This document shows positions 17,183-63,713 of a stretch of 64,000 nucleotides of DNA, one piece after another. Under the pieces are notes generated by a model that was not told the origin of the DNA, ran no database searches, and worked only from the letters and a program-made list of their open reading frames with translations. The stretch comes from Bacillota bacterium. Its GTDB lineage: Bacteria > Patescibacteriota > Minisyncoccia > Phycocordibacterales > Phycocordibacteraceae. The stretch's first letter is position 1, and each line of letters opens with the position of its first letter. The position numbers and the translations under genes were made by a program. Location: the NCBI GenBank assembly GCA_050260455.1, contig JBLNCF010000017.1, positions 639 to 64,638 on the forward strand. Direction: 5' to 3'.

Positions 17183-17634
17183 AGGGTGGATACAGAAAGC
17201 CGCGACGGTACATCGCGGCAACACTGGATAGTATGTTTGTGCTCGTTTACGAGGGCACGCTCGCGAGTCGAGTTTCTTGTTTAAGGCGGAAGAAACCCTC
17301 ACCCTCAAAACCTCTCGCCGTTTTTGCCAGGGGAAGGCCCTGGCCCCCTTTCGGCCTTGACCTACACTCCCTATTCCCAAGCCAGTGCCTTGTGAATAGG
17401 GCGGGTCGCGAAAGCTCTTTCCCAAGTCAAATCGTATCACCGCCGGGTGGATCAAATCAAATTGGGAACCCTGTTGGTCCCAGGCGTAATTCTATGTATG
17501 AAAAGCAATTCGGTGACCCAAATTAGTGGTAATTGGAACTCTCTCGTTTCAGAGCTTAATTCCTGGCTTATATTCGGCCGCTCTCTCGAACGAGAGCTGG
17601 AGCTCGTGTAAATACTGCCTTTAAGGACTAGAAA

Positions 17635-18282
17635 CTAAGGGCTATCAGTATCCGGCGGAAATTTATAATCGTTAATTTCACCTGCCACAAACCTGTCTAG
17701 GTATTCTTCCTTTTTGCGATCAAAGTACTGAATCTTTTCCATCGTGTGCTTGCCCTCACGGAGCGGTTCTTTTGTGTAGTTATCGAGAATATATCCGTGC
17801 CCCGGTTCTGGATTGAGCATAGTAAAGAGCTCCGACAGATCTTCTAGCAAAGATTCTACTTCATCATACTGAACTGGAAATCGTTGTAGAAGCTTACTTG
17901 GATCCGCAAGGTGCTCAGCGTTTAAATGTGCAAGCTGATGATCACGCAGACGAGCTATGCTGGTAATAACTCGCTCATGCTTTTTTAGTAATGTCTCTGC
18001 TCGCTCACGCCTAGACGGATCGGGATGATGTTTTAATAGTGCTTGAACCGAAATCACTTGACCGCGCTCGCTAAAGTTTGATTTCTCAAAACACTTTGCC
18101 AAACTTAAAAGCCACTCATTCTGTAGTGCTAGTAGGGTTGCACTCCAGAAGTAATTTGCTTTGTGATATATAGGCTCATAATCCTTATTTTGGAGAGACT
18201 TCCATGAATAGAAAGTGGCACTTGCGCCGAGGAGGTTGCTATATAGCTGGTCGAATCTTTTTTTATATTCATTAACTTCCAT
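17635..18282 (-). CDS. Uncharacterised 215-aa alpha-helical protein encoded immediately downstream of HerA in the island; possible HEPN-like (Rx5H) motif
   Basis: AT-rich like the SIR2/HerA genes; 9-bp gap to the HerA stop, same strand (likely co-transcribed). 'RLRDHQLAHLNAEH' contains an R-x5-H pattern. Confidence 0.55.
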   Translation of the reverse strand: MEVNEYKKRFDQLYSNLLGASATFYSWKSLQNKDYEPIYHKANYFWSATLLALQNEWLLSLAKCFEKSNFSERGQVISVQALLKHHPDPSRRERAETLLKKHERVITSIARLRDHQLAHLNAEHLADPSKLLQRFPVQYDEVESLLEDLSELFTMLNPEPGHGYILDNYTKEPLREGKHTMEKIQYFDRKKEEYLDRFVAGEINDYKFPPDTDSP

Positions 18283-18291
18283 TTTAATAAT

Positions 18292-20223
18292 CTAGTTAGT
18301 CACGTCCTCGTCTTTCCACTTCTCAGAAAGGGTCATTGTCTTGTTTCGGGGTTCGTACTTGGTCGGTATTTTGCCTATATCTACGACCACAGGCACCTGA
18401 GCAAGTAGTCCTGCAAGAATACAGGTACCGGTGGGCAAAATAGGAAGATACTCGAATGAGACTTTGTCTAGATAAGATATCGTCTTTTCGATCGCATAAA
18501 TATCGTTGTTATTTATGAGTCGATGAAGGAAGTAGTTATGCAACTGAGAAATAATGGTGGGAGAAATGTCCGCAGGACGCTGACTGGCAATAGTTAGGAA
18601 CACACCAAATTTGCGGCCTTCCTTGATTATTTCTTCGAAGGTCTCGAGGCGGTAGTCTTTCCATTGCTCGCTCTCTCGGTCAGAAGTGTCTGAGAGAATG
18701 TTGTGTGCCTCGTCAACAATGATGTTGAGATATGAGTTCCCATCTCTCAACTCTTTCTTCTCGTCGTAAAGATTCTTACAGAGCAGAAGGGGCAGGATTT
18801 TTCTGATATGAATATTTACATCTTTTAACGAAACGATGGTTAGATTTCTCTGATTGGTTTCCTCCTCCTGCTCCCCCTTCACAGCCACTACCTTGATCAG
18901 GTCCTTAACTTTCGTATCGAGACGCTTTAAAAGAGGTGAAATATGATCTCGATTAGAGTAGCCTTTGAAGATCTCATCGTAATACTTGATGATTATCTTT
19001 AGACGGATAAAGGCAATCTCATTTTCAGTAAATTCGAGTAGGTTGATTTGAGCTCTCACTGGCTCTGTGAAGTGGGTTGAGATATTCGCAGCACTGTAGC
19101 GATCATTTCCAACTACTCCATTAGCACGAACAAAGTAAGTGCCATTGGTGCTGTTGAAGTCCAGAGTGTTGTTTACAAGGCCCATGATTGTGTTTATTGG
19201 ACCCTCATCGTTTACGCTGGCCCTTAGATCAGAGAAAAGCTCAACAAAAATCCTTGCACCGAGGCTCTTGTCGTTTTTAGCTAGAACGTCCTCAACAAAA
19301 GAGGCAATTTTCTCGCGAAGGTTCGCGTTTGGTGAACCTGTAGTATCTACATTCTCGAAGATTTGCCTTGTGAAGCCACCTTCGAGCGCCCGCACCAAAA
19401 ATGGAGCTTGAGTCTTTTCAGTAGCCTCCAGGAAAACAGTCCAGAAACTGGCTTCGTTGAGAGCCTCTTTTGTTATGGGGTATTTATCTTTCCCAGTCGT
19501 TGCGCGGGTGGAGAGTTTATAGATTCGTTTGTGTTTTGACTCGACAATAATGTCGTCGGCTTCCTCGTCGTCTGCTGTGTATTCACCATTGAAGTCAATA
19601 AGGAAGAACTTAGCGTTTTGAAAGAACTTTGACTGATCTTTATAAAATTTGAAGAGCTCGTGATAGATCTTCGCAAGTGTATAGGATTTACCGCTTCCAG
19701 TATTACCAAAAATGCCTATATGGCTCGCGAAAAGACTATTGACTCCAACGCTGATGTCCTGACCCTTTTCCAGAGCCAGACGGCCAATTGCAATTGGATC
19801 ATCGTCTCCGCGAATGAAATTGTGCACCTCGTTAAACTCTCTATTAGGAAGGAGGTAGCATTCATTCCCTACAAGGGGGAGTTCCTTTATTCCTCTTTCG
19901 AATTGGTCTCCCTTAAAGAAACCGAGAAGGCTTACGGCAAGTATCCTATTGATACGTTCCTTCTCATTCACGTAATCCTTCTTTGAAAAGGTGGGATCTT
20001 CGCTAGTGAATTCACCTTCAACCTTGCCGATAATCTTCGTAAAGCCTTTGACGATTTTTATATAACCTCCAACAGAGATATTTTTGAGCAACTCACCCTT
20101 ATAAAGGAGGTGCGATGTGTTCTTGGTCTTATCGACTTTTATCTTAATGGTTCTGCCATCCACCGATACAACCTTACCTATCTTAAATATGGAGTCCTCG
20201 AGGATTTGGCTGTCGTTGCTCAT
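18292..20223 (-). CDS. herA: HerA-like ATPase (DUF87/HerA helicase family) of a SIR2-HerA defence system
   Basis: N-terminal HAS-barrel-like beta region, Walker A 'GIFGNTGSGKSYTLAKI', Walker B 'IIVDEAHNIL'; 643 aa. Start overlaps the upstream SIR2 gene stop by 4 nt. Confidence 0.8.
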   Translation of the reverse strand: MSNDSQILEDSIFKIGKVVSVDGRTIKIKVDKTKNTSHLLYKGELLKNISVGGYIKIVKGFTKIIGKVEGEFTSEDPTFSKKDYVNEKERINRILAVSLLGFFKGDQFERGIKELPLVGNECYLLPNREFNEVHNFIRGDDDPIAIGRLALEKGQDISVGVNSLFASHIGIFGNTGSGKSYTLAKIYHELFKFYKDQSKFFQNAKFFLIDFNGEYTADDEEADDIIVESKHKRIYKLSTRATTGKDKYPITKEALNEASFWTVFLEATEKTQAPFLVRALEGGFTRQIFENVDTTGSPNANLREKIASFVEDVLAKNDKSLGARIFVELFSDLRASVNDEGPINTIMGLVNNTLDFNSTNGTYFVRANGVVGNDRYSAANISTHFTEPVRAQINLLEFTENEIAFIRLKIIIKYYDEIFKGYSNRDHISPLLKRLDTKVKDLIKVVAVKGEQEEETNQRNLTIVSLKDVNIHIRKILPLLLCKNLYDEKKELRDGNSYLNIIVDEAHNILSDTSDRESEQWKDYRLETFEEIIKEGRKFGVFLTIASQRPADISPTIISQLHNYFLHRLINNNDIYAIEKTISYLDKVSFEYLPILPTGTCILAGLLAQVPVVVDIGKIPTKYEPRNKTMTLSEKWKDEDVTN

Positions 20224-21392
20224 ACGTGAGGCTTATTCCTCTCTTCGATCATCTTCAAAAGGCAGTCGAATATCTCAGTGTTTATATTCGCGAAATCGAA
20301 TTCATATTTATCACCCCCGCCGTCTTCTTCTGGTTTCTGCTCCGGTACAATAACTTTCACGTTGTCGTTCTTAATATGCGCGATATCAAGTTTCGCCTCA
20401 AAGTCAGCTTTTGATTTCGAGGAATGAGCAATTATGAGGACAGTAAGGGTTGGGTTCGAGTTTGCCGCTCGAAGCGTAATTTCGCGAATATGCTCATCAG
20501 CGAAAGAAAAGCCTAGAACAAAGAGAACGGTGTTTTCCTTTTCGAGCTCATTAGCGTACATGCGCAATAGCTCATAATGGATTTGGTTCAGGAGTGTAAG
20601 CTTAAATTTCTCCTTAGTCGGGTTAATGATAGGGAGTTCCTGGTACGAGCCAAGAAATTCCTCCGTTGTCGGAGAGAGGCGTTTTCTCGCAGTTGCAGTA
20701 GTAAGGTCCTGAAGAGATTGTCCAGGCGCGGCCGCCACGATCTCCGTGTAGCCATTAGCTTTCAGTTTGCTGACAATCCTAAGATCGGGACTGAACTTAA
20801 TCTTCTTCTCTCCATTTACCTCGCATACCTCCCAAGTAAGGGAGCCGTGCAACTTAAGAAGATTAAAGACCGGAATTTCTGAGGTGTTGTCGAAATGCAG
20901 GCTCTTTTGGAAAGTAGACTTTCTAAAATTACTCAAGTTGAAGATAGGCATAAATCGCCCATTGAAGCCATCGCTATATTCCAGGCCGAGTTCCTCGAGA
21001 GCTTTTTCGAAATAAATATCGATATTCGTCGTGAAGATGTTTACTTGCTTGTTTATTATTGAATTCTTTCGACTGAGGAGAATTGTGTTAATGACTTTAA
21101 GAAACTGCTTGTAGTTTTTAAGAACTTCCTCGGATGCAGGGTCGTCCTTCAGGATCTCTACGTTTTTGAAGACGATTTCCTCGCAATAGCGTTTATAGAG
21201 AGCGGCACGAATCAGCTTCTTCTTTGAATCTGCTAGATCGGAGCTATCGACTTGGCTAAGCAGATCCTCGATGTTGCCAAGAACTCTAAGGAACGGCATA
21301 GAAAGGCCCGACCCTATGAGGAAGTTAATGTTGCTGTCCTGGACAGTATCTTTAAGCGCCCCTATGTTCATAGGACCCTTGCCTGGTGCCAT
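20220..21392 (-). CDS. SIR2-like (SIR2_2 family) NAD-binding/NADase domain protein, partner of HerA
   Basis: SIR2_2 motifs 'NFLIGSGLS...PFL' (GAGxS Rossmann motif), 'FTTNIDIYFEKALEE' (TTNYD-like) and 'LLKLHGSLTW' (HGS); 390 aa. Confidence 0.75.
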   Translation of the reverse strand: MAPGKGPMNIGALKDTVQDSNINFLIGSGLSMPFLRVLGNIEDLLSQVDSSDLADSKKKLIRAALYKRYCEEIVFKNVEILKDDPASEEVLKNYKQFLKVINTILLSRKNSIINKQVNIFTTNIDIYFEKALEELGLEYSDGFNGRFMPIFNLSNFRKSTFQKSLHFDNTSEIPVFNLLKLHGSLTWEVCEVNGEKKIKFSPDLRIVSKLKANGYTEIVAAAPGQSLQDLTTATARKRLSPTTEEFLGSYQELPIINPTKEKFKLTLLNQIHYELLRMYANELEKENTVLFVLGFSFADEHIREITLRAANSNPTLTVLIIAHSSKSKADFEAKLDIAHIKNDNVKVIVPEQKPEEDGGGDKYEFDFANINTEIFDCLLKMIEERNKPHV

Positions 21393-21990
21393 ATCTTGGA
21401 TTATAGACCTTATCTCCTTAAGTCAATAGTTTAGCAAGCCCCACAAAGTAAAATAGTAGTTTTGCAAGGCCTAAAAGAGATAAGAGAAAATTTAGGAGCC
21501 TATAAAGTGCTCTCACATTGAACTAGGGGATATTGAACGGATTTGCAGATACTAGAAACGCCTAAATTCCAGCCCAAGAATAGGGCGATGAAAAATACCG
21601 TCCCAATTATTATCCACGCACCCAAACGCTCTCCAGAGCTCATCTTTGACTCGCTCATAGCAGATCTTGACTAGCCTGATAAAAAACCTCGTGTGGACAC
21701 AGAGAACCCGCCACGGGTCCCTGACCGAAGCCAGGCGTACAGGTTTCCCCATACGGCGATCAAGCACCCCCATGACGGGTTCTCTGTGCTTGATCGACTT
21801 TTCATGCCATGCCGTTGCCGGTTTAGGCATCGCCCTTGCTTGGGCCGGTATTCAGTTGTCTCCTAATGCTACTTCCTAACGACACCTCTCGCAATTGGGC
21901 TGGTATAATGATCTGAACAACCAAAGTGTAGGTAGGGGAGGCCCAAACCTTAGATCAAGTCTGAGCTTGAGATAAGACGGGCGAATCCCA

Positions 21991-22185
21991 ATGCTTACCC
22001 TCTCTCAGTTAAGAAAAATAGATCCGGCTCTAACTCATATATCGGATGAGGATCTTGAAGCTATTAGATCTGAGCTATACCAGATCGCTCGGCTAGCCTT
22101 TGATTTCAAATACAGAGAAGTTGATTCCAAAAATCTAATTGGGTTATTGGCACCGGAACCCGTTATGCCTAAGATTGAATCATGA
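21991..22185 (+). CDS. Small (64-aa) ORF translationally coupled to the serine recombinase; possible recombination-directionality/regulatory factor
   Basis: Stop overlaps the recombinase ATG (ATGA); preceded by a 'tataat' -10-like element at ~21913. Confidence 0.3.
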   Translation: MLTLSQLRKIDPALTHISDEDLEAIRSELYQIARLAFDFKYREVDSKNLIGLLAPEPVMPKIES

Positions 22186-23708
22186 AGCATATTGGCGAAC
22201 TAACAGGCGTCGTATACTGTCGAGTTTCATCGCAAGAGCAAGTAGCAGGCACAAGCCTTGCTATGCAGGAAAGGTCTTGTCGCGAATATGCTAGGAGAGA
22301 AGGTATTGAGGTGGTTGGCTGCTTCGTTGAAGAAGGTGAATCGGCAAAAACAGCAAACCGAACGGAGTTTCAAAAGGCGCTAGCGTTTTGCGCGGATAAA
22401 AAGAAACCTGTTGATTTTTTCATCGTACATAAACTTGATCGTTTCTCCAGAAACCAGGATGATCATGTTACAACTCAGGCCTTTCTAAGAAAATACGGGA
22501 CGAAGCTTAGATCAGTAACTGAGCAAATCGACGAGACTCCAATCGGCAAAATGATGGAGGGAGTTCTCGCCACATTTGCAGAATTTGATAATAACGTTCG
22601 CGCTGCTCGAAGTAAGAGTGGAATGCAAGAAAAAGCACGTAAAGGAATATGGGTCTGGATTGCCCCTCTCGGCTATAAAAGACTCGTAAAAGGCGGAAAT
22701 TTGGTCATAGACGAGGAAGCTGCTCCTTTTGTGCGCCTAGCTTTTGAGGAGTACTCAAAGGGTATTCATAGCTTTGAGTCGCTAGCGGATCACTTGTTTG
22801 AGAGAGGATTTCGCACCTCCAGTGGTAAGAAAATTTATAAACAACTTCTTGAGAAGATACTACGCAATCCGATTTATTACGGGAAGATCAAAGCCTTTGG
22901 TGAAGAAATTGATGGTGCGTTCCCATCGATTATCGATGAAAGACTTTTTTGGAAATGTCAGCCAGGAACAAAGAGCAAGTTTCGGCCAGGTAAGAGACTT
23001 AAAGAAAACTCAGATTTTCCTCTCAGGAGAATTGTTAAGTGTACAGAATGCGGCTCCTCGATTACAGGTAGCGCATCAACTGGACGCAAAGGAGTCAAAT
23101 ACCCTTATTACCATCATCACAAGCAAGGATGTTCTTTAGCCTCATTCGTCCCAAAAGAATCTTTTGAACAGAATTTCATTTCTTATTTGCAGGAACTCTC
23201 TCCAAACCCAGCTTATGAGAAGCTTTTTAGAGCAATTGTGATCGATACCTGGCAATCAAATTATCAAGAACTAGATAAGGAAAACGAGAAGGTCAGAAGA
23301 GAAATATCTGATTTGGAAGATGAGCGCCAAAGAGTATTTGATGCTCAGCGTTCTGGCGTTTACACAAATGAAGAGTTTTTGCAGCAAAAAGATCGTATCA
23401 ATAAAATAATCAACCAGAAGAAGTTTCTACTAGAGGAAAAACAAATTGAAGAATTCAATATGGAAGAAGCTTTAGACTACTGTTTCCGGTTTGTGGGTGA
23501 TAGCTCAAGAACCTGGATCGAGCTCGGAGAAGATCCGTCATTCCGTCTTAGATTCCAAAATCAGTTATTCCCAGAAAAACTTACGTACGATGGGCAAAAA
23601 TTTGGAACCACTAAAACATCCCTTATATACGAGCTAAGCCAGCCCTGTAATGACGATTCAACTAAATTGGTGACCCCACGGGGAATCGAACCCCGATTTA
23701 CGCCGTGA
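22182..23708 (+). CDS. Large serine recombinase (resolvase catalytic domain + recombinase domain + zinc-ribbon + coiled-coil)
   Basis: N-terminal 'VVYCRVSSQEQ' catalytic-serine motif and 'FIVHKLDRFSRN'; central recombinase domain; 'CTECGSSITGS' Cys-rich zinc ribbon; C-terminal coiled-coil. The last 41 nt overlap the antisense tRNA-Glu. Confidence 0.9.
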   Translation: MKHIGELTGVVYCRVSSQEQVAGTSLAMQERSCREYARREGIEVVGCFVEEGESAKTANRTEFQKALAFCADKKKPVDFFIVHKLDRFSRNQDDHVTTQAFLRKYGTKLRSVTEQIDETPIGKMMEGVLATFAEFDNNVRAARSKSGMQEKARKGIWVWIAPLGYKRLVKGGNLVIDEEAAPFVRLAFEEYSKGIHSFESLADHLFERGFRTSSGKKIYKQLLEKILRNPIYYGKIKAFGEEIDGAFPSIIDERLFWKCQPGTKSKFRPGKRLKENSDFPLRRIVKCTECGSSITGSASTGRKGVKYPYYHHHKQGCSLASFVPKESFEQNFISYLQELSPNPAYEKLFRAIVIDTWQSNYQELDKENEKVRREISDLEDERQRVFDAQRSGVYTNEEFLQQKDRINKIINQKKFLLEEKQIEEFNMEEALDYCFRFVGDSSRTWIELGEDPSFRLRFQNQLFPEKLTYDGQKFGTTKTSLIYELSQPCNDDSTKLVTPRGIEPRFTP

Positions 23709-23742
23709 AAGGGCGCTGTCCTAGCCGTTAGACGATGGGGCC
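23668..23742 (-). tRNA. tRNA-Glu (anticodon TTC)
   Basis: Reverse complement: ggcccca...T-arm cgggg-ttcgatt-ccccg, anticodon loop ctTTCac, 3' CCA encoded; G-U in the anticodon stem. Confidence 0.75.
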
Positions 23743-23807
23743 TTCATATGAAGGCGCACGGCTACATCCTACATTTTTACCGCATAAAATGCTAGGATAG
23801 CGGCACT

Positions 23808-23897
<90 letters not shown>

Positions 23898-23902
23898 TAA
23901 GC

Positions 23903-45045: not shown

Positions 45046-45093
45046 CCAGTGCTTCGTTGACACTCCTGGCTGCGGGAGTAAGCTCTCTGCAGG

Positions 45094-45120
45094 GCTGAGA
45101 ACGGGTCTCAGCCTTGTATT
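45094..45120 (+). terminator. Putative terminator after gyrA
   Basis: 'gctgaga-acggg-tctcagc' then 'cttgtattgtt'. Confidence 0.45.
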
Positions 45121-45337
45121 GTTACGGGGGAGTTACCGTGAAAGATCGTCAATTGTCGGATGCAGAACGCCAGGACCATGATCATGGCCACGTGCAGCGC
45201 CGGGAAACCTTCAGCGGAGGTCCGCTGGGGATCAGTCCCAGCGCGAGCGCGTGGAGGAACAGTCCGGCCGGGCAAGCCTACTGCAATCCGCCCAAGCATC
45301 GCCTCTTGTAACTAAGAGGACCGGACGGTCATCGGGG

Positions 45338-45375
45338 CGCGTCGTTCACTCGGCGCGCCTTCTCTTTTATAGTCA
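45338..45375 (+). terminator. Putative intrinsic terminator ending an unannotated transcript between gyrA and the methyltransferase gene
   Basis: 'ggcgcg-tcgttcactcg-gcgcgcc' followed by 'ttctcttttat'; a 'tataat' -10 box follows at ~45393. Confidence 0.4.
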
Positions 45376-45422
45376 GTGCACAAGAACGGCATGCGTATAA
45401 TCGCGCGTGCTATTTTTATTGC

Positions 45423-45953
45423 ATGCACTTTGCGGACCCGACGACAAACGTTCTCCAGATGGGACTTTCAGATGGCATGAAAGTTGCCGATCTTGGTGCG
45501 GGCTCGGGACACTATGCGCTCGCTGCGGCAGGAATTATCGGTCCTGCCGGTCGTGTGTACGCAGTGGATATCCAAGAAGATGTGTTGAAGCATGTCCGTG
45601 ATGAAGCGGGCAAGCGGGGCCTTAAGAATGTAGAAACTATCTGGGGAGATTTTGAGCGACCCGGAGGCACGAAACTTCGCGACGGGGTTGTTGATGCCGT
45701 GATTCTTTCAAATGTTTTGTTCCAGCTTGAAGACCGCTATTCCGCAGTCGCCGAGATTCGTCGCATTCTCGCACCAGGAGGGAAACTGCTCGTCGCTGAC
45801 TGGGCAGGGGCGTTCGGGGGTCTTGGTCCCGCCGAGGAGCACATCGTATCTGAACGCGACGCGGAGGAACTTTTCATAACGGCTGGGTTCCATAAAGTGA
45901 AGAGCTTCCGTGCTGGTCCCCATCATTACGCTATTATGTTCACATCTCCCTAG
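45423..45953 (+). CDS. Class I SAM-dependent methyltransferase
   Basis: Motif I 'VADLGAGSGHYA', motif II 'AVDI', post-I acidic residue; 176 aa. Confidence 0.75.
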   Translation: MHFADPTTNVLQMGLSDGMKVADLGAGSGHYALAAAGIIGPAGRVYAVDIQEDVLKHVRDEAGKRGLKNVETIWGDFERPGGTKLRDGVVDAVILSNVLFQLEDRYSAVAEIRRILAPGGKLLVADWAGAFGGLGPAEEHIVSERDAEELFITAGFHKVKSFRAGPHHYAIMFTSP

Positions 45954-45955
45954 CT

Positions 45956-47248
45956 ATGCGCCCATTTCAAATCATCACCCTGTCCGTATTCGCTGTCCTC
46001 GCACTTCTCGGCCTCCTCCTCTTTGCTACGTTCAAAGGGACAGGCACGAATAAATCAGTGGGGAATGTGACGGTATGGGGAACACTCCCGGCCTCTGCAG
46101 TGAATGCGGCAATAGATGATTTGCGCCGCAACCACAAAGAATTCGGCACTATTACCTACGTTGAACGCGATCCCGGCACATTCGATTCAGATCTTTCCGA
46201 AGCTATTGCGTCCGGTTCAGGACCCGATCTTCTCATCACGACACAGGAACGTTTGCGTGCCGAGGCGAGCAAGCTGTCTGTCATTCCATTCTCTTCGATT
46301 CCCGAGCGCACCTATCGCGACACCTACTTGCCGATACATGAGCTCTTCCTCACCTCTACCGGGACCTACGGTATCCCTCTTGCCGTTGATCCGCTTGTGC
46401 TCTATTACAACCGTGCGACTCTCGTGAGTGCGAATGTGGCGCTGCCACCATCGACCTGGGAAGCAGTCGTCGGTTTAGCGCCTCATCTTACGGCACGCAC
46501 CGGCGTGGGTACTATACAAAAGAGTGCCATTGCCCTCGGTGCCTATGACAACATCCCGGCTGCGCGCGCGATCGTGTCGTTACTTCTGCTGCAATCGGGA
46601 AGTCATATTGTTGAGACAAGTACTGCTGGCACCCGGGGCGCGCTCACTACCGGGGTTGGACCGGATGCTTCTGGGGTGGCACCTGCAGAATCGGCGATGA
46701 ATTTCTACACCCAGTTCGCTGATCCGGCGAAGGTGGTGTATAGCTGGAATCGTTCACTTCCTGACGCACGACAAACCTTCATTTCTGGTGATACCGCGTT
46801 CTATATCGGATTTGCTTCCGAGCGGAGTTTGATCGCTGCGTCGAACCCTCACCTTGATTTCGACATGGCACCGATTCCGCAACCGCAGACGGCGGCTTCG
46901 AAAACTGACTACGGTATTGCGTATGCGTTTGCGCTACCGAAGGCGAGCGGAAACCCCACGGGAGCATTCCGCGTTGCTTCCGCACTCGCCTCCAAGGCAG
47001 AAGCGCCACTTCTGGTAAAGCCGGCTGGCATGGCGCCTGCAATACGCTCGTTGCTTACCCCCTCATCAAACGACGCATACGCTCCGGTCGTGTATTCGCA
47101 AGCGCTCATTGCTTCTGGTTGGCTGTCCCCATCGCCAGCCGTAACCGACCGGATCTTCGCTGCTATGATTAATAGCATCATCAGTGGAAGCGCGACGGTG
47201 CATGACGCGCTCTCTACGGCAGATGAATCACTCACCGCTGCACTCTAA
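45956..47248 (+). CDS. Secreted/lipid-anchored extracellular solute-binding-protein-like protein
   Basis: N-terminal TM/signal anchor, ~400-aa alpha/beta periplasmic-binding-protein-like region ('YGIPLAVDPLVLYYNRA'). Confidence 0.55.
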   Translation: MRPFQIITLSVFAVLALLGLLLFATFKGTGTNKSVGNVTVWGTLPASAVNAAIDDLRRNHKEFGTITYVERDPGTFDSDLSEAIASGSGPDLLITTQERLRAEASKLSVIPFSSIPERTYRDTYLPIHELFLTSTGTYGIPLAVDPLVLYYNRATLVSANVALPPSTWEAVVGLAPHLTARTGVGTIQKSAIALGAYDNIPAARAIVSLLLLQSGSHIVETSTAGTRGALTTGVGPDASGVAPAESAMNFYTQFADPAKVVYSWNRSLPDARQTFISGDTAFYIGFASERSLIAASNPHLDFDMAPIPQPQTAASKTDYGIAYAFALPKASGNPTGAFRVASALASKAEAPLLVKPAGMAPAIRSLLTPSSNDAYAPVVYSQALIASGWLSPSPAVTDRIFAAMINSIISGSATVHDALSTADESLTAAL

Positions 47249-47811
47249 TGGCTCTCCCGCTTAGAACATCTCGCATAGTAGGCTTTGTCATTTGCCTCTT
47301 TCTCCTGACTCCGTTTGCTTCTCATGCTGCAGTGGGTGACACCTGCGATATTTCTCACCCGTGTTCCACTGGCCTAACCTGTCAGCTTTCTTCTGATAAC
47401 AGTGGTGCTAAATGCGTTAGTGCGCCCGCCGGAACTGACTCGCAAAACACCGCACAAAATGGTGCGTCGGATCAAAATACTGCACAAAATGGTGCGTCGG
47501 ATCAAAATACTGGCTCCAACACCGACGCCTGCGGGAATGAAGAGGGAAAGCTCCACAATCCCCTTAAATTCTGCTCACTCCCCGAGTTGATGGACGGTAT
47601 TTTGCAGGCCGTGGTTGAGCTTGGCGCTATCCTCCTCATCTTCATGCTGGTATGGGTGGGCTTCCTCTTTGTCGCGGCACAGGGTAACCCGGAGAAGATT
47701 TCTGCAGCACGATCTGCACTCATTTGGGTGCTCATCGGCGGTCTCATCCTTCTCGGTGCCGAAGCAATCAGTAAGGTTATCGAGGCGACCGTAAACAGCC
47801 TAACGGTATGA
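47248..47811 (+). CDS. Pilin-like small secreted two-helix membrane protein (TrbC/VirB2-type architecture), paralog 1
   Basis: Signal peptide, Cys-rich and 'QNTAQNGASD' repeat region, then helix-'GNPEKISAARSALIWVLIG'-helix. Confidence 0.45.
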   Translation: MALPLRTSRIVGFVICLFLLTPFASHAAVGDTCDISHPCSTGLTCQLSSDNSGAKCVSAPAGTDSQNTAQNGASDQNTAQNGASDQNTGSNTDACGNEEGKLHNPLKFCSLPELMDGILQAVVELGAILLIFMLVWVGFLFVAAQGNPEKISAARSALIWVLIGGLILLGAEAISKVIEATVNSLTV

Positions 47812-48257
47812 TGCGCGCTGCACTACCACTTTTTCTATTCACCGCCTTTCTTGTCTTCCAGCCGGCACACGCGCAGACCTGTACGCCTGCTTGCGGCGAA
47901 GGCATGATCTGCGTCTATAAGGGTATTTCCGATAATCCCAACGATACAGCGTGCATCCCCCAAGAACAGAATGGAACCGTGGACGAGCTGGTGGTGACCG
48001 GTGCTCCCGTTCATCACACTACCTTTGCAGACCTAGTGTACAAGGGCATCGTTCCGTTCGTGGATAGTTTTGTGATTCCGTTCTTGTATGTCCTCGCTTT
48101 CCTATTCTTTCTCATCGGAATCGTGCGGTATTTCTTTATGGGCGGCGAGGAGCAGCGCCAGGCAGGCAAGACCTTTGTCGTGTGGGGTCTGGTTGGCATG
48201 GTGATCATCTTCGGGGTGTGGGCTATCGTACGTCTCCTCCTCGGCGTTATCCAGTAG
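47808..48257 (+). CDS. Pilin-like small secreted two-helix membrane protein, paralog 2
   Basis: Signal peptide, Cys-rich segment, 'FFMGGEEQRQAGKTFVVWGLVG' family motif between two hydrophobic helices. Confidence 0.5.
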   Translation: MMRAALPLFLFTAFLVFQPAHAQTCTPACGEGMICVYKGISDNPNDTACIPQEQNGTVDELVVTGAPVHHTTFADLVYKGIVPFVDSFVIPFLYVLAFLFFLIGIVRYFFMGGEEQRQAGKTFVVWGLVGMVIIFGVWAIVRLLLGVIQ

Positions 48258-48299
48258 GGGGAGTTGCTGGGTAAGACCTGCTTGGTACCCTTTAGTCAT

Positions 48300-48914
48300 A
48301 TGCATATTCTTCGCTCAGCTCTCCGTGCCGGTTTTGCCACGCTTACCTTGTTTCTCTTTGTCGGAGTCGCGCATGCGCAGGTTCCTGACACTAAGGGTGT
48401 CGACAACCTGGGCGTGTTTCTTCTCAAGGGCATCTATTTCATAGATCGTTATCTCGTTCCGGTCATCTTCGCTCTCGCATTTATTGTCTTCGTCATTGGT
48501 GTCTACCGGTTCTTCATCGCTGGTGCTACGAATGAAGAGAAGCGGCAGGAAGGGCAGAAATTTGTCGTGTATGGTCTCGTAGGATTCGTGCTCATGCTTT
48601 CCGTCTGGGGCATTGTGAACTTGCTTCTCAACACACTCGGTTTTAACCGGACTGCACGTCCTGACTTGCCCATATTCGGTGCACCAACTGACTACATGAA
48701 CAGCACGAAGACGAGCTTGCCAACCTCCAACACCAAAGATACAAGCAATACGACGAACTCAGGGACGCCTGATAACCTCCCTAACGGCGGCGAGGGGTGT
48801 ACCAAGGGAGCCAACGGTAGCTTCACGTGTCCGACGGATACTACGAAGACCCCCACCTCAAATACCACCCAGACCTCGGGATCCTTCAATTACGGTAATC
48901 CGCAGGACATTTAG
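48300..48914 (+). CDS. Pilin-like small secreted two-helix membrane protein, paralog 3 (with Thr/Asn-rich C-terminal tail)
   Basis: 'FFIAGATNEEKRQEGQKFVVYGLVG' motif; ORF 48264.. trimmed to Met 'MHILRSAL'. Confidence 0.45.
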   Translation: MHILRSALRAGFATLTLFLFVGVAHAQVPDTKGVDNLGVFLLKGIYFIDRYLVPVIFALAFIVFVIGVYRFFIAGATNEEKRQEGQKFVVYGLVGFVLMLSVWGIVNLLLNTLGFNRTARPDLPIFGAPTDYMNSTKTSLPTSNTKDTSNTTNSGTPDNLPNGGEGCTKGANGSFTCPTDTTKTPTSNTTQTSGSFNYGNPQDI

Positions 48915-49022
48915 TCCAGAAACCGTTTTCCACATCCTGGACGGGCCCAGATTGAAGCTGGTCAGGGCGCGCGTTATCCTATAAGGGAACACCTCCGCGG
49001 TTGTTTACAGTAATCACATCTT

Positions 49023-49382
49023 ATGAAGAAACTTGGCTTTATCGGTGCTGCTTTCGCGCTTCCATATCTGGCATTCGCCCAGATCAACAGCGCGTTCGAT
49101 GCGGGTCGCATCATCATCGACCTTATCAACAATGTTGCGGTGCCGATCGTTTTCGCTCTCGCATTCATCGTCTTCATCTGGGGTATCTTCCAGTACTTCA
49201 TTCAAGGAGGTCACGATGAGGAGAAGCGCGAAGGCGGTAAGCAGCTCATGCTGTGGGGCCTTATTGGCTTCTTCGTCATGGTTTCGGTCTGGGGCCTCGT
49301 GCATGTCCTTACCGGTACGTTCAATCTGAACTCGAACGTCCCGACGTATCCGACCGCGCCGTACACTACCCAGGGCCACTAG
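49023..49382 (+). CDS. Pilin-like small secreted two-helix membrane protein, paralog 4
   Basis: Signal peptide 'MKKLGFIGAAFALPYLAFA', 'FIQGGHDEEKREGGKQLMLWGLIG' motif. Confidence 0.5.
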   Translation: MKKLGFIGAAFALPYLAFAQINSAFDAGRIIIDLINNVAVPIVFALAFIVFIWGIFQYFIQGGHDEEKREGGKQLMLWGLIGFFVMVSVWGLVHVLTGTFNLNSNVPTYPTAPYTTQGH

Positions 49383-49447
49383 TCGCACCCATTTTCTCCA
49401 CGGAACCCCGCGTCTTATGGCGCGGGGTTCTGCTATTATGGGTATCA

Positions 49448-49711
49448 ATGGATGTCTTCCACGAATTCCTCGGCAAGATCGAGCAAGCAATCATTAATCC
49501 CCTCATTACTCTTATTGGACTTGCCGCGTTCGTCTTATTTGTGTGGGGTGTCGTCGAATTTATCGCTGGAGCGGGCAATGAAGAGAAGCGCACAAAAGGA
49601 CAGCAGCATATCATTTGGGGCATCATTGGTCTCGTCATAATGTTTGGCGCCAAGGCGATCATTATGATTGCGGCAAGTACCTTCGGTATTGACCTTCCGG
49701 AAGGAGTATAG
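49448..49711 (+). CDS. Pilin-like two-helix membrane protein, paralog 5 (no obvious cleavable signal)
   Basis: 'FIAGAGNEEKRTKGQQHIIWGIIG' motif; trimmed to Met 'MDVFHEF' at 49448. Confidence 0.4.
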   Translation: MDVFHEFLGKIEQAIINPLITLIGLAAFVLFVWGVVEFIAGAGNEEKRTKGQQHIIWGIIGLVIMFGAKAIIMIAASTFGIDLPEGV

Positions 49712-49763
49712 AAAGAGGCCCGACGCATGCGCCGGGCCTCGCTTCCTGTGCCACCGTCTGTGA

Positions 49764-50348
49764 TCAGCAGTGTTCGTCTGTCCATGCGTAGTGGTAGGGC
49801 AAATCGAACTCGTTCTGGTCAGCCGACATGAACGCCATGGCGTTCGCTGACACGTTGCCGAACGGTTGCATCGGAATCCAGTGGTCGGTCTCGGTGTAGT
49901 CGGGGTAGCGGTTGTCGTGATAGAACCGCTCGAACCCGTCTTTCACCGGATCGAGATCGGGACAGAGCTTCACCCCTTCCCCTTCGTAGGTGAGACGAGG
50001 GATGGGAACCGGCTCAGACCGGATGTTGTTCAGGTTGAGCGCCGGCACATGGACCGAACCCGAGGGCGGGAGTTGCGGCCGAGTCGGAGCGACCGGAGCA
50101 ACATTATCCGCCGTGGCCGGAGCACTGGCGACAGCAGTCGTAGCGCGGCCGTTCACCGGGTTGTAGTCCGTGTGGGGATGACAGTCCTTCAGAAGAAGGA
50201 GAATCACGATCCCCAGCAGGATGAAGATAATCGCCTTTGCGAAAAAGGGGACGGGGTGTCCGTGATGGTGATTACCCTTTTTGGCGTGCTTTTGTTCTGG
50301 AGCTTTCTTTTCGGGGTGTTCTTCCGAAGCGTGTGCTTGAGCGGCCAT
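49764..50348 (-). CDS. Hypothetical membrane-anchored protein with His-rich N-terminal segment
   Basis: Trimmed to Met 'MAAQAHASEEH' (the longer ORF runs into tRNA-Leu); 'KKGNHHHGHP', one TM, C-terminal soluble domain. Confidence 0.45.
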   Translation of the reverse strand: MAAQAHASEEHPEKKAPEQKHAKKGNHHHGHPVPFFAKAIIFILLGIVILLLLKDCHPHTDYNPVNGRATTAVASAPATADNVAPVAPTRPQLPPSGSVHVPALNLNNIRSEPVPIPRLTYEGEGVKLCPDLDPVKDGFERFYHDNRYPDYTETDHWIPMQPFGNVSANAMAFMSADQNEFDLPYHYAWTDEHC

Positions 50349-50438
50349 GCCGCGTCCTCCTGATCTCGTGGTGGCTATAGGAAGCAGAAACAACCTCTGC
50401 CTAAGGCAGAGAATATCATATTTGTATGAAAAGTCAAG

Positions 50439-50520
50439 TGCTGGGGAGAGGACTCGAACCTCCATGCCCGAAGGCGCCTGCTCCTAAGGCAAGTGCGTCT
50501 ACCAATTTCGCCACCCCAGC
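50439..50520 (-). tRNA. tRNA-Leu (anticodon TAG)
   Basis: Reverse complement: gctgggg...D-loop aaattggtag...anticodon arm cttgc-ctTAGga-gcagg, long variable arm, T-loop ttcgagt. Confidence 0.85.
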
Positions 50521-62696: not shown

Positions 62697-63713
62697 ATGC
62701 GGCGCATCATATTGGCACTTCCACTGACACTTCTCCTTTTCATGAGCGTGTCGGTTCCTGTGCACGCGGCGAGCATCCCGCTTCTCGACCCTAATTTCCA
62801 CATTGTGCCGGATGCGCACGAGATAAATAGCGCCTGTCCGGTAGGAGCGCCGTTGAGCTACGGCGGCATACTCCTTCTGATCCAGCGCCTCATGAACGCC
62901 GGCATCATGCTCGGCATCATTGCCTTTGTTTTCGTAATGGCCTATGCCGGAGCTTCGTTCATGATGAACCCGACAAACCCTGAAGCACGCAGTCATGCAC
63001 GAGGCATGATCATTAATGTGGTGATAGGCATGATTATTCTCCTGTCTTCGTGGCTCGTTGTAGATTTTGTGATGAAGGTTCTCTACAACCCTGATCAAGT
63101 TCTTTCTGGAGGCATACATCTGGGTGGTTGGAACGAAATACTCAAGCCTGATGGCGGCGATCCGGGCTGTATCCAGGAAGGGAAAACCACCAAGATTCTC
63201 TCTGGAGTACCAGGTGCCGTCTTCGATCAGGTAGTGGGTCCCTCGAGCGAATCGCCGACACCCATCACCCCATCCACACGCGGTCTGTGTACTCCTGCCA
63301 ATCTTGAGAAGAATGGATGGCCAAGCAATCTTTCCAAGCAGATGTCGTGTGTCACAAAATACGAGAATGGATCCTGCAACGCGAGCGCTCCGAGTAGTAC
63401 TGACGTCGGTAAAGACGGCAATTCTGTATCCATAGGTCTCTTCCAGGTGAACCTTTCGGCGCATGATATGAACTATCCTGCCTGCAAAGCGTTTAATGGC
63501 GGGAAGCCGCTTAACTGCACAAAGGCTTTTGCAGGCGGAAAATACACAAGCACCAATCACAATACTTACGTCAGTGATCCGCGCTTATATCAGCAATGTC
63601 GAGCGGCTGCTAGTAACCCGGCATGCAACATTGCTGCTGCGATAGAGATTCGGCAAAACGAAGGTATTGGCGCATGGGGAACGGCAGCCCAGAATAATTG
63701 TAAGAGCCTGTGA
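62697..63713 (+). CDS. Secreted fusion protein: pilin-like two-helix membrane module + Cys-rich lysozyme/lytic-transglycosylase-like domain
   Basis: Signal peptide; two-helix pilin-like segment ('LLLIQRLMNAGIMLGIIAFVFVMAYAGASF...') as in the 47.2-49.7 kb paralogs; C-terminal ~200 aa with 'YENGSCN' and 'SIGLFQVN' (GLMQ-like) SLT-type motifs and many Cys. Confidence 0.5.
   Translation: MRRIILALPLTLLLFMSVSVPVHAASIPLLDPNFHIVPDAHEINSACPVGAPLSYGGILLLIQRLMNAGIMLGIIAFVFVMAYAGASFMMNPTNPEARSHARGMIINVVIGMIILLSSWLVVDFVMKVLYNPDQVLSGGIHLGGWNEILKPDGGDPGCIQEGKTTKILSGVPGAVFDQVVGPSSESPTPITPSTRGLCTPANLEKNGWPSNLSKQMSCVTKYENGSCNASAPSSTDVGKDGNSVSIGLFQVNLSAHDMNYPACKAFNGGKPLNCTKAFAGGKYTSTNHNTYVSDPRLYQQCRAAASNPACNIAAAIEIRQNEGIGAWGTAAQNNCKSL

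Follow-up and report, generated by a model that had tools for sequence, protein, structure and literature searches.

The 64,000-nt stretch of Patescibacterial DNA analysed here (positions 639 to 64,638 of contig JBLNCF010000017.1, assembly GCA_050260455.1; the whole stretch is called the window) carries seven genes in operon-like order on its plus strand, at 45423-49711. They encode a methyltransferase (MT), a solute-binding protein (SBP) and five small pilins (P1 to P5). All five pilins are members of PF18895, a pilin family of type IV secretion systems (T4SSs), and the order of SBP followed by pilins recurs in every related locus that was scored. The operon is probably the surface module of a Patescibacterial, monoderm-type T4SS, with the SBP as a receptor or adhesin partner; this reading is favoured, with reservations that are weighed below. 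The pilin array is of a kind already published. What appears to be undescribed is the class-wide coupling to SBP and MT, the fixed grammar of five pilin types, and the predicted control specific to P4.

Anatomy of the operon

All seven open reading frames (ORFs) listed in an earlier, model-generated reading of the sequence (the original prediction) are present as described there. MT (45423-45953, 176 aa) is followed after a 2-nt gap by SBP (45956-47248, 430 aa). SBP overlaps P1 (47248-47811, 187 aa) by 1 nt (TAATG), and P1 overlaps P2 (47808-48257, 149 aa) by 4 nt (ATGA). P3 (48264-48914) spans 216 aa from a TTG start; its orthologues suggest that translation more probably begins with the ATG at 48300, for a length of 204 aa. 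P4 (49023-49382, 119 aa) and P5 (49448-49711, 87 aa) lie behind spacers of 108 nt and 65 nt, respectively, and the ATG start of P5 is backed by orthologues that begin MDAF(H/N)SFL. The identities proposed for the two leading genes, a methyltransferase and a protein with a periplasmic-binding-protein fold, hold.

Upstream, gyrA ends 377 nt before MT and is set off by a terminator-like hairpin at 45334-45361, found in a terminator scan. The tight MT-SBP-P1-P2 junctions, near zero or overlapping, contrast with this terminator-bearing spacer, and it is on this contrast that the coupling of SBP to the pilins is argued.

Family identity of the pilins

The gathering scores of the two Pfam families concerned are 26.6 bits for PF18895 (T4SS_pilin) and 27.9 bits for PF04956 (TrbC). 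Against PF18895, P1 to P5 score 37.9, 26.9, 33.6, 45.0 and 38.8 bits, respectively. All five are above the cut-off, and the precomputed PF18895 annotation of their orthologues agrees with these scores. P2, which barely clears the threshold, matches a local pilin hidden Markov model (HMM) with E = 6e-34. That five small proteins align with one another and pass PF18895 is far beyond chance. Because all five exceed the cut-off, the T4SS-type pilin reading is supported, and with it the view of the original prediction that these proteins are TrbC/VirB2-like and not PilA-like. On direct reading of the five sequences, no PilA-type class III leader (G-F-T-L-I-E) is found; AxA-type leaders and two helices are present instead.

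The same prediction had also pointed to PF04956, and here the window proteins fall short; the best is P1, with 17.6 bits (E = 0.0046). The tie to TrbC/VirB2 pilins is provided by relatives. Among 148 array members from ~40 related genomes, scanned individually, 144 match PF18895 and 46 match PF04956 at E <= 0.01 (best 4.2e-10), which links the array family to TrbC/VirB2 pilins, with the window copies sub-threshold. A few of the 148 also match Maff2, DUF4134 or DUF6112, which are small-protein families of conjugation elements. P5 itself has further Pfam matches to Maff2 (0.0042) and TrbC (E = 0.096), and all five window pilins reach 25-33 bits with NF045849, an NCBIfam model for a pilin-like protein of Mycoplasma integrative and conjugative elements (ICEs), below its cut-off of 40 bits. 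Membership of a holin- or bacteriocin-like family, which had been named as the finding that would speak against a pilin identity, received no Pfam or PHROGs match; the single PHROGs match was to a head-protein family, at 20.9 bits.

Architecture of P1 to P5

Topology was derived from Kyte-Doolittle hydropathy windows and AlphaFold2 models. The architecture that was said to be common to all five proteins is common as far as the two-helix core is concerned; the inter-helix loop motif, GG/AG-x-(D/N)EEKR-x-x-G-x5-WG(L/I)(I/V)G, is confined to P2-P5, and P1 has the variant loop QGNPEK. Identity of P2-P5 to P1 is 23-36%. As anticipated, P1-P4 have N-terminal leaders, hydrophobic stretches that end in AxA followed by A or Q, and P5 has none; Cys-rich segments are likewise found in some members, with six Cys after the leader of P1, four in P2 and two in the C-terminal tail of P3.

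P1 is the most TrbC/VirB2-like of the five, and its leader is followed by an N-terminal extension that comprises the six Cys and a low-complexity region. Within this extension, Tandem Repeats Finder detects a 30-bp tandem repeat (47443-47512, plus strand; 2.3 copies, 95% identical), which encodes QNTAQNGASD repeats and forms a linker of variable length; it indicates a recent change in the length of the low-complexity linker. In two C7867 Parcubacteria genomes, the p1-type pilin (L003 7613-7870, L007 7668-7925) consists of 85 aa and has neither leader nor N-terminal extension, so the extension is dispensable in some lineages.

P2 combines a leader (AHA, then Q) with a four-Cys module, C-x3-C-x5-C-x13-C, and the two-helix core. 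In P3, leader and core are followed by a Thr/Ser/Asn-rich C-terminal tail of ~90 aa that contains the two Cys; the tails of its orthologues are Cys-rich and variable. P4 is minimal, with a leader, two helices and a short Pro/Thr tail. Its AlphaFold2 model (mean confidence, pLDDT, 78) has helices at residues 3-17 (the leader), 24-61 and 66-99, the latter two forming a hairpin.

Conservation across Paceibacteria

A scan with an SBP profile, using one genome per species, gave 593 related loci, of which the best 80 (SBP identity 35-68%) were used. These are titled Kaiser-, Zambryski-, Nomura-, Campbell-, Adler- and Taylorbacteria, Minisyncoccia and others. The scored set consists of the 72 of these 80 loci that have at least 1.5 kb of downstream sequence, and pilins were detected with an HMM built from 20 pilins. 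In all 72, 3-8 pilin ORFs (mode 5) come directly after the SBP homologue on the same strand, with a stop-to-start gap of <= 30 nt between SBP and pilin in 59. No pilin matches occur elsewhere in the scored 20-kb loci. A homologue of MT lies upstream of SBP in 67 of the 72, and in 59 of these 67 the stop-to-start gap is again <= 30 nt. The window order, gyrA, MT, SBP and then five PF18895 genes, is repeated in three long contigs from different sources. The exact window proteins are found in Logan on two short contigs, of 4.8 and 3.9 kb.

The five pilins are distinct from one another, and each keeps its place. In a BLASTP matrix of four genomes, pilins at the same position score 80-205 bits and those at different positions 16-114 bits; each pilin is most similar to its same-position counterpart in the other genomes. 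Position-specific HMMs recover the order 1-2-3-4-5 in 25 complete arrays of the close clade as well as in the window, with one extra p4-type copy in 6 of the 25. In distant arrays, the p1-type gene is usually first or second and the p5-type gene usually last. P1 forms a distinct orthologue group that is always first or second in the array. P4 is the most conserved paralogue; its identity to orthologues (80/57/68%) is on a par with that of Alr or IF-2, while P1-P3 share 39-51% with theirs and differ mostly in the extracellular extensions. By sequence comparison, then, the five paralogues are ancient positional orthologues, not recent or hypervariable copies. The description as tandem paralogues in the original prediction is correct as to five paralogous genes, and the term hides this ancient, position-specific orthology. 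Such fixed orthology argues against antigenic variation and favours non-redundant roles for the five types.

Regulatory elements

The elements described here are on the plus strand unless stated otherwise, and they point to three predicted transcription units: MT-SBP-P1-P2-P3, P4 and P5. Upstream of MT lies a promoter-like region (45345-45401) that contains TTCACT-17-TATAGT at 45345-45373 and TATAAT at 45396-45401; these are matches to pattern only, and their number in the region equals the shuffle expectation.

P4 has signals of its own. A sigma-70-like motif, TTGAAG-N17-TATCCT (48952-48980), lies ~40 nt upstream of its start; TTGA and TAT-CT are invariant in a four-genome alignment, and TTGAC(G/T)-N16-18-TAT(C/G)CT precedes P4 in 17 of 26 close-clade loci. 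Directly 3' of P4 lies a G+C-rich hairpin with a 14-bp stem (49401-49432; -35.2 kcal/mol, z = -7.2). Its equivalents in three annotated relatives (L002-L004) have energies of -25 to -29 kcal/mol; their stem sequences differ and the structure is kept. A hairpin of <= -22 kcal/mol occurs within 70 nt after P4 in 26/26 close-clade loci. It is predicted to act as a terminator or attenuator inside the array. Because P4 is the most conserved paralogue and has its own promoter-like motif and terminator hairpin, it is the candidate for the major (bulk) subunit.

An extended -10-like box, TGCTATTAT (49431-49439), stands 8 nt upstream of the P5 ATG. Its core, TGCTAT-AT, is invariant before P5 in the four-genome alignment, and a strict regular expression finds it in 12 of 26 loci. 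In the same alignment, the TGCTATNAT box lies 7-9 nt 5' of the P5 start, which points to a transcript for P5 alone, possibly a leaderless one. The operon's end is marked by a hairpin between P5 and a convergent minus-strand ORF (49715-49740, no strand assigned; -20.5 kcal/mol, z = -1.9), which is weak when taken alone.

A conserved TTYTCCNC box is also present a few nucleotides after the stop codons of P3 and P4. The 377-nt spacer between gyrA and MT (45046-45422) contains two terminator-like hairpins. In relatives, its length ranges from 60 to ~730 nt, with small ORFs in some; as its length is not kept, the spacer was set aside. Neither the spacer nor the interior of the operon has an Rfam match at the gathering threshold.

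The solute-binding protein and the methyltransferase

SBP scores 62.7 bits against SBP_bac_1 (PF01547; cut-off 26), and profile matches in the PDB include the mannooligosaccharide-binding protein MnBP1, MalE and other sugar-binding SBPs. Its AlphaFold2 model (pLDDT 92) has a helix at residues 3-25 followed by a two-lobe fold, for which Foldseek returns sugar SBPs with E ~1e-20 and a template-modelling score of ~0.7. From these models it can be said with confidence that the protein has a family 1, MalE-like fold of the carbohydrate type and is anchored in the membrane by an N-terminal transmembrane (TM) helix; it lacks the Cys of a lipobox. The family comprises 966 clusters (at 50% identity) with E < 1e-30, all of ~430 aa, and its alignment contains numerous invariant aromatic residues: W41, Y68, W168, F254, Y262, W264, F275 and Y283. 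No permease or ATPase of an ATP-binding cassette (ABC) transporter (BPD_transp, ABC_tran) was found among the scanned ORFs of the window, nor is there such a gene within 10 kb of SBP in L002-L004.

MT is, by its sequence, a small, cytoplasmic, generic class I enzyme dependent on S-adenosylmethionine (SAM), with no leader and no Cys. It matches Methyltransf_31/11/25 in Pfam with E = 6e-19 to 1e-15, and no NCBIfam equivalog at cut-off; among solved structures it comes closest to 3dh0, a SAM methyltransferase that is uncharacterised.

T4SS machinery and a second pilin-like cluster

The original prediction had noted that the window contains no VirB4 or VirD4 gene. This is borne out; none of the 38 ORFs scanned against Pfam matches VirB4, VirD4 or VirB6. 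In relatives, too, no gene of these families lies within 10 kb. A HerA/DUF87 ATPase at 18292-20223 was considered as a VirB4-like protein and rejected, being the HerA partner of a SIR2-HerA defence pair. The machinery is proposed to lie elsewhere in the genome. Table S1 of a survey of Patescibacteria (Quinonero-Coronel et al. 2025, PMC12102498) lists as VirB4-positive seven relatives in which the SBP-pilin module is present.

A further pilin-like gene lies 13 kb downstream of the array (62697-63713, plus strand). It encodes a 338-aa protein in which a leader and a pilin-like hairpin of the p1 type precede a C-terminal domain rich in Cys, and is probably a related accessory gene. Its PF18895 score (25.4 bits) is slightly below the cut-off; NCBI already labels two PF18895 proteins of the window, this one and P4, as 'pilin'. 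Past the end of the window (L085 2079-3535), the gene is followed by a 180-aa ORF and then by a 303-aa PF18895 protein (41.1 bits), which also has a Cys-rich C-terminal domain. In relatives, this second cluster is conserved after clpB and followed by miaA, parB, relA, topA and dprA. Its pilin hairpins may serve as anchors for enzyme-like ectodomains. More specific assignments of these domains were rejected; a lytic transglycosylase in the 338-aa protein was suggested by a weak, lysozyme-like SLT_3 (PF18896) match below cut-off (E = 0.0025), and a LAS/M15-type (zinc D-Ala-D-Ala) peptidase in the 303-aa protein has no Pfam support.

Comparison with known systems

Arrays of VirB2-like pilins are an established feature of Patescibacteria. 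The survey counted 441 of them, with 2-11 genes each, in 383 assemblies (PMC12102498). It detected pilins with PF18895 and PF04956, alongside the pilin profiles of diderm T4SS classes, and defined an array as at least two PF18895/PF04956 genes of low identity, in tandem or one gene apart. With five consecutive genes, low identity between copies and a Patescibacteria genome, the window array falls within this definition. It resembles the published arrays, among them the 'Sec-secreted array' of TM7x, in having tandem PF18895 genes (five here) whose products are divergent (~25% identity) and structurally alike, in being chromosomal, in its monoderm CPR (candidate phyla radiation) host and in the lack of a relaxase nearby.

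The differences lie in its surroundings and order. Southlakia epibionticum ML1 has an essential array of six PF18895 genes (SEML1_0014-0019; Wang et al. 2023, PMC10633639) beside genes of the T4SS; its neighbours are VirB4, VirB6 and PrgI genes, and there is no SBP. The window array, in contrast, adjoins gyrA, with every T4SS gene more than 14 kb away. Ahead of its pilins stand a methyltransferase and a MalE-like SBP whose gene is translationally coupled to theirs; the pilins follow a fixed five-type grammar, and P4 is predicted to be under separate control. The word 'solute' is absent from the survey, and its single 'methyltransferase' is KsgA (PMC12102498). A literature search found no report of an SBP adjoining Patescibacteria pilin arrays; most papers in subscription journals were outside that search.

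Several other systems invite comparison. Like the diderm pilins of the TrbC/VirB2 type (Agrobacterium VirB2, RP4 TrbC), the window proteins are small, with a cleaved leader and, between two hydrophobic helices, a short charged loop. The leader junction of P2-P4 is Ala-Gln, and VirB2 is likewise cleaved before Gln. Unlike those systems, the window host is monoderm and without VirB5, VirB7, VirB9 and VirB10, and has five distinct paralogues, some with long extracellular extensions, in place of one major pilin. The VirB2 arrays of Bartonella and Anaplasma (Rickettsiales) share with the window several tandem, divergent copies in a host-associated bacterium, and have been cited as an analogy for Patescibacterial arrays (PMC12102498). 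Variation in those arrays is believed to serve immune evasion or host range, whereas the window copies are stable positional orthologues. The Mbov_0395 family (NF045849, Mycoplasma ICEs) and Maff2 (PF12750, Firmicutes ICEs) are small two-TM proteins of monoderm or wall-less conjugation systems; they differ in being single-copy genes inside mobile elements.

For the SBP, a parallel is PrgZ of the Enterococcus plasmid pCF10, a membrane-tethered SBP whose gene lies in a monoderm conjugation (T4SS) locus and is thereby tied to a Gram-positive-type T4SS; it serves to sense a partner-derived molecule, not nutrition. PrgZ binds peptides, is OppA-like (SBP family 5) and, as a lipoprotein, feeds the Opp permease of the host. 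The window SBP differs in being of the sugar type (family 1), in its TM anchor and in having no known permease partner.

Proposed mode of action and alternatives

In the mode of action proposed here, five non-redundant VirB2-like pilins would enter the membrane as helical hairpins, P1-P4 via cleavable leaders and P5 leaderless. The charged loop would face the cytoplasm and both termini the outside, where the variable Cys-knot and low-complexity decorations of P1-P3 would be displayed. A VirB4/VirB3/VirB6 machine encoded elsewhere in the genome would extract the pilins and polymerise them into a short heteromeric pilus or conduit, with P4 as candidate bulk subunit and P1, as the most TrbC-like, as candidate specialised (base or tip) subunit. 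The SBP would bind carbohydrate, either a glycan of the host envelope or a host-derived oligosaccharide, and thus act as adhesin or receptor partner of the apparatus; the cytoplasmic MT would be co-transcribed with SBP and pilins. Filament formation, VirB4 dependence, subunit roles, ligand and function of the SBP, and any role of MT are predicted features of this scheme. A more specific version is conceivable, though doubtful as a whole: the T4SS 'pilus' of Paceibacteria would be a heteropolymer of about five fixed, non-interchangeable VirB2-like subunits, with assembly or targeting coupled to a dedicated, membrane-anchored sugar-binding SBP recruited from ABC transport, which would either recognise host glycans as receptor or adhesin, in the functional place of VirB5 or PrgB, or gate a conduit for uptake from host to epibiont; the gyrA-adjacent operon would stand apart from the VirB4 engine, and P4 would be the separately controlled major subunit.

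Several observations weigh against a T4SS surface module. No pilus made of PF18895 proteins has ever been seen, and none has been reported for any Patescibacterium. The window lacks T4SS ATPase and channel genes from 45 kb upstream to 14 kb downstream of the array, and in relatives no such gene, VirB4 included, lies within 10 kb of the second cluster. Three pilin profiles (A3, A1 and a core alignment of 362 sequences), compared by hhalign with VirB2 of A. fabrum C58, gave no significant match (probability < 1%), and the alignment was limited to 11-14 residues of helix 2; it is for this reason that the VirB2/TrbC link is made via the PF04956 matches of relatives. The pilin alignment profile found no solved pilin among PDB sequences, and the P4 model had no Foldseek match in the PDB better than E = 1.5, a search that says little because a helical hairpin is too simple a fold. 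Finally, MT is missing in a few loci, and the whole neighbourhood is syntenic across the class (a metallo-beta-lactamase-fold gene, gyrA, MT, SBP and pilins, then rbfA and infB), so adjacency alone does not prove that SBP and MT work with the pilins.

This last point leads to the strongest rival, in which the pilins act as proposed above while the SBP, an ordinary ABC-importer receptor with its permease elsewhere, and MT, a housekeeping enzyme, are mere passengers in a frozen gene order. gyrA, the metallo-beta-lactamase-fold gene, rbfA and infB keep their adjacency nearly as constantly as the SBP does; the fold of the SBP is a normal one, confidently MalE-like; MT is dispensed with in the few loci just mentioned; and the Southlakia epibionticum array does without an SBP. 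The spacing of the genes tells against mere passengers, as gyrA is set off by 377 nt and a terminator-like hairpin while the MT/SBP/P1/P2 junctions measure 2 nt or overlap, and the tight SBP-pilin junction is kept in 59/72 loci over deep divergence. Nor does any annotated locus have a permease or ATPase gene within 10 kb. A passenger role is considered somewhat unlikely.

A second alternative accepts the link to T4SSs and dispenses with the filament; PF18895 proteins would be small structural subunits of the translocon that stay in the membrane, or anchors by which extracellular domains are docked to it. According to the literature, a pilus is normally absent from monoderm conjugation systems. 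The weak matches to two-TM proteins of Gram-positive and Mycoplasma elements (Maff2, the Mbov_0395 family) are in line with this, and the fusion of the same hairpin to enzyme-like ectodomains in the 338-aa and 303-aa proteins fits an anchor role. Set against these points, part of the array family matches TrbC/VirB2 pilins proper, and in cultured Paceibacteria PF18895 pilins rank near the top of the secreted proteins by expression. A dedicated promoter-like motif and a hairpin around a single subunit are typical of a bulk structural subunit, and the decorations are on termini that would be external. A translocon or anchor without a filament is unlikely, and the pilus or conduit is preferred.

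It is improbable that the array is a device for diversity or antigenic variation, in which interchangeable, fast-evolving pilins would widen the host range. The low identity of the paralogues to P1 (23-36%), the variable extensions of P1-P3 with the recent 30-bp repeat, and a copy number of 3 to 8 across the class would suit such a device. The order of the types, however, is fixed across genomes whose SBPs are 48-68% identical; P4 and P5 are as conserved as housekeeping proteins; and no repeats or recombination substrates were seen besides the 30-bp repeat. It is on the strict positional orthology that antigenic variation was rejected. Least probable of all is a T4SS-independent, SBP-dependent uptake or adhesion complex, a novel transporter-like assembly of the SBP and five two-TM proteins: 3-8 hairpin proteins always follow the SBP and a classical permease never does, weak DctQ-like matches occur and the array is remote from virB4, but the DctQ matches concern 3/148 members and are typical of hydrophobic helices, in other classes the family is tied to T4SS loci, where it is essential, and VirB4 is listed for all seven relatives checked in the published table.

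The distinction between partner and passenger matters. In the only Patescibacterium open to genetic work, T4SS genes and pilin array are essential for life as an epibiont (PMC10633639), and no adhesin has been found for the Patescibacterial apparatus. If the SBP is part of the machine, it offers a concrete, soluble and expressible candidate for the step of host recognition or cargo capture, and the operon provides structural work with a fixed five-subunit parts list that includes a likely major subunit. Paceibacteria are among the best-represented classes of the phylum (PMC12102498). If the SBP is merely a neighbour, what remains is an ordinary locus, annotated already and belonging to a published family.

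Organism and other features of the window

The closest homologues of the window proteins are all labelled Parcubacteria, Paceibacterota or Patescibacteria. This assigns the organism to the class Paceibacteria (Parcubacteria/CPR) and agrees with the Patescibacteria-like host that had been guessed at the outset. The source metagenome-assembled genome nevertheless bears the NCBI label 'Bacillota bacterium', and 'uncultured Candidatus Saccharibacteria bacterium' is the title of the assemblies behind ~23 of the 80 syntenic loci, although the synteny of these loci is of the Paceibacteria type; the record taxonomy of these assemblies looks unreliable.

Downstream of P5, the convergent ORF (49764-50465, minus strand) encodes 233 aa with one TM helix and no family match. 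Its 5' end overlaps a tRNA-Leu gene (50438-50520), so that the true start is probably internal. In most relatives, the equivalent gene is adjoined by one for a stomatin-like membrane protein (Band_7/SPFH), which is missing here.

Further upstream, at 17600-23900, the GC content falls to 43-45%, compared with ~55% in the remaining window. This low-GC island holds the anti-phage pair SIR2 (20220-21392) and HerA (18292-20223), a LOOT RNA recognised by Rfam (21720-21829, minus strand, 68 bits) and a large serine recombinase (22182-23708), and it abuts tRNA-Glu and tRNA-Ser genes (23668-23897). The whole has the look of a mobile defence island that has integrated into a CPR genome.

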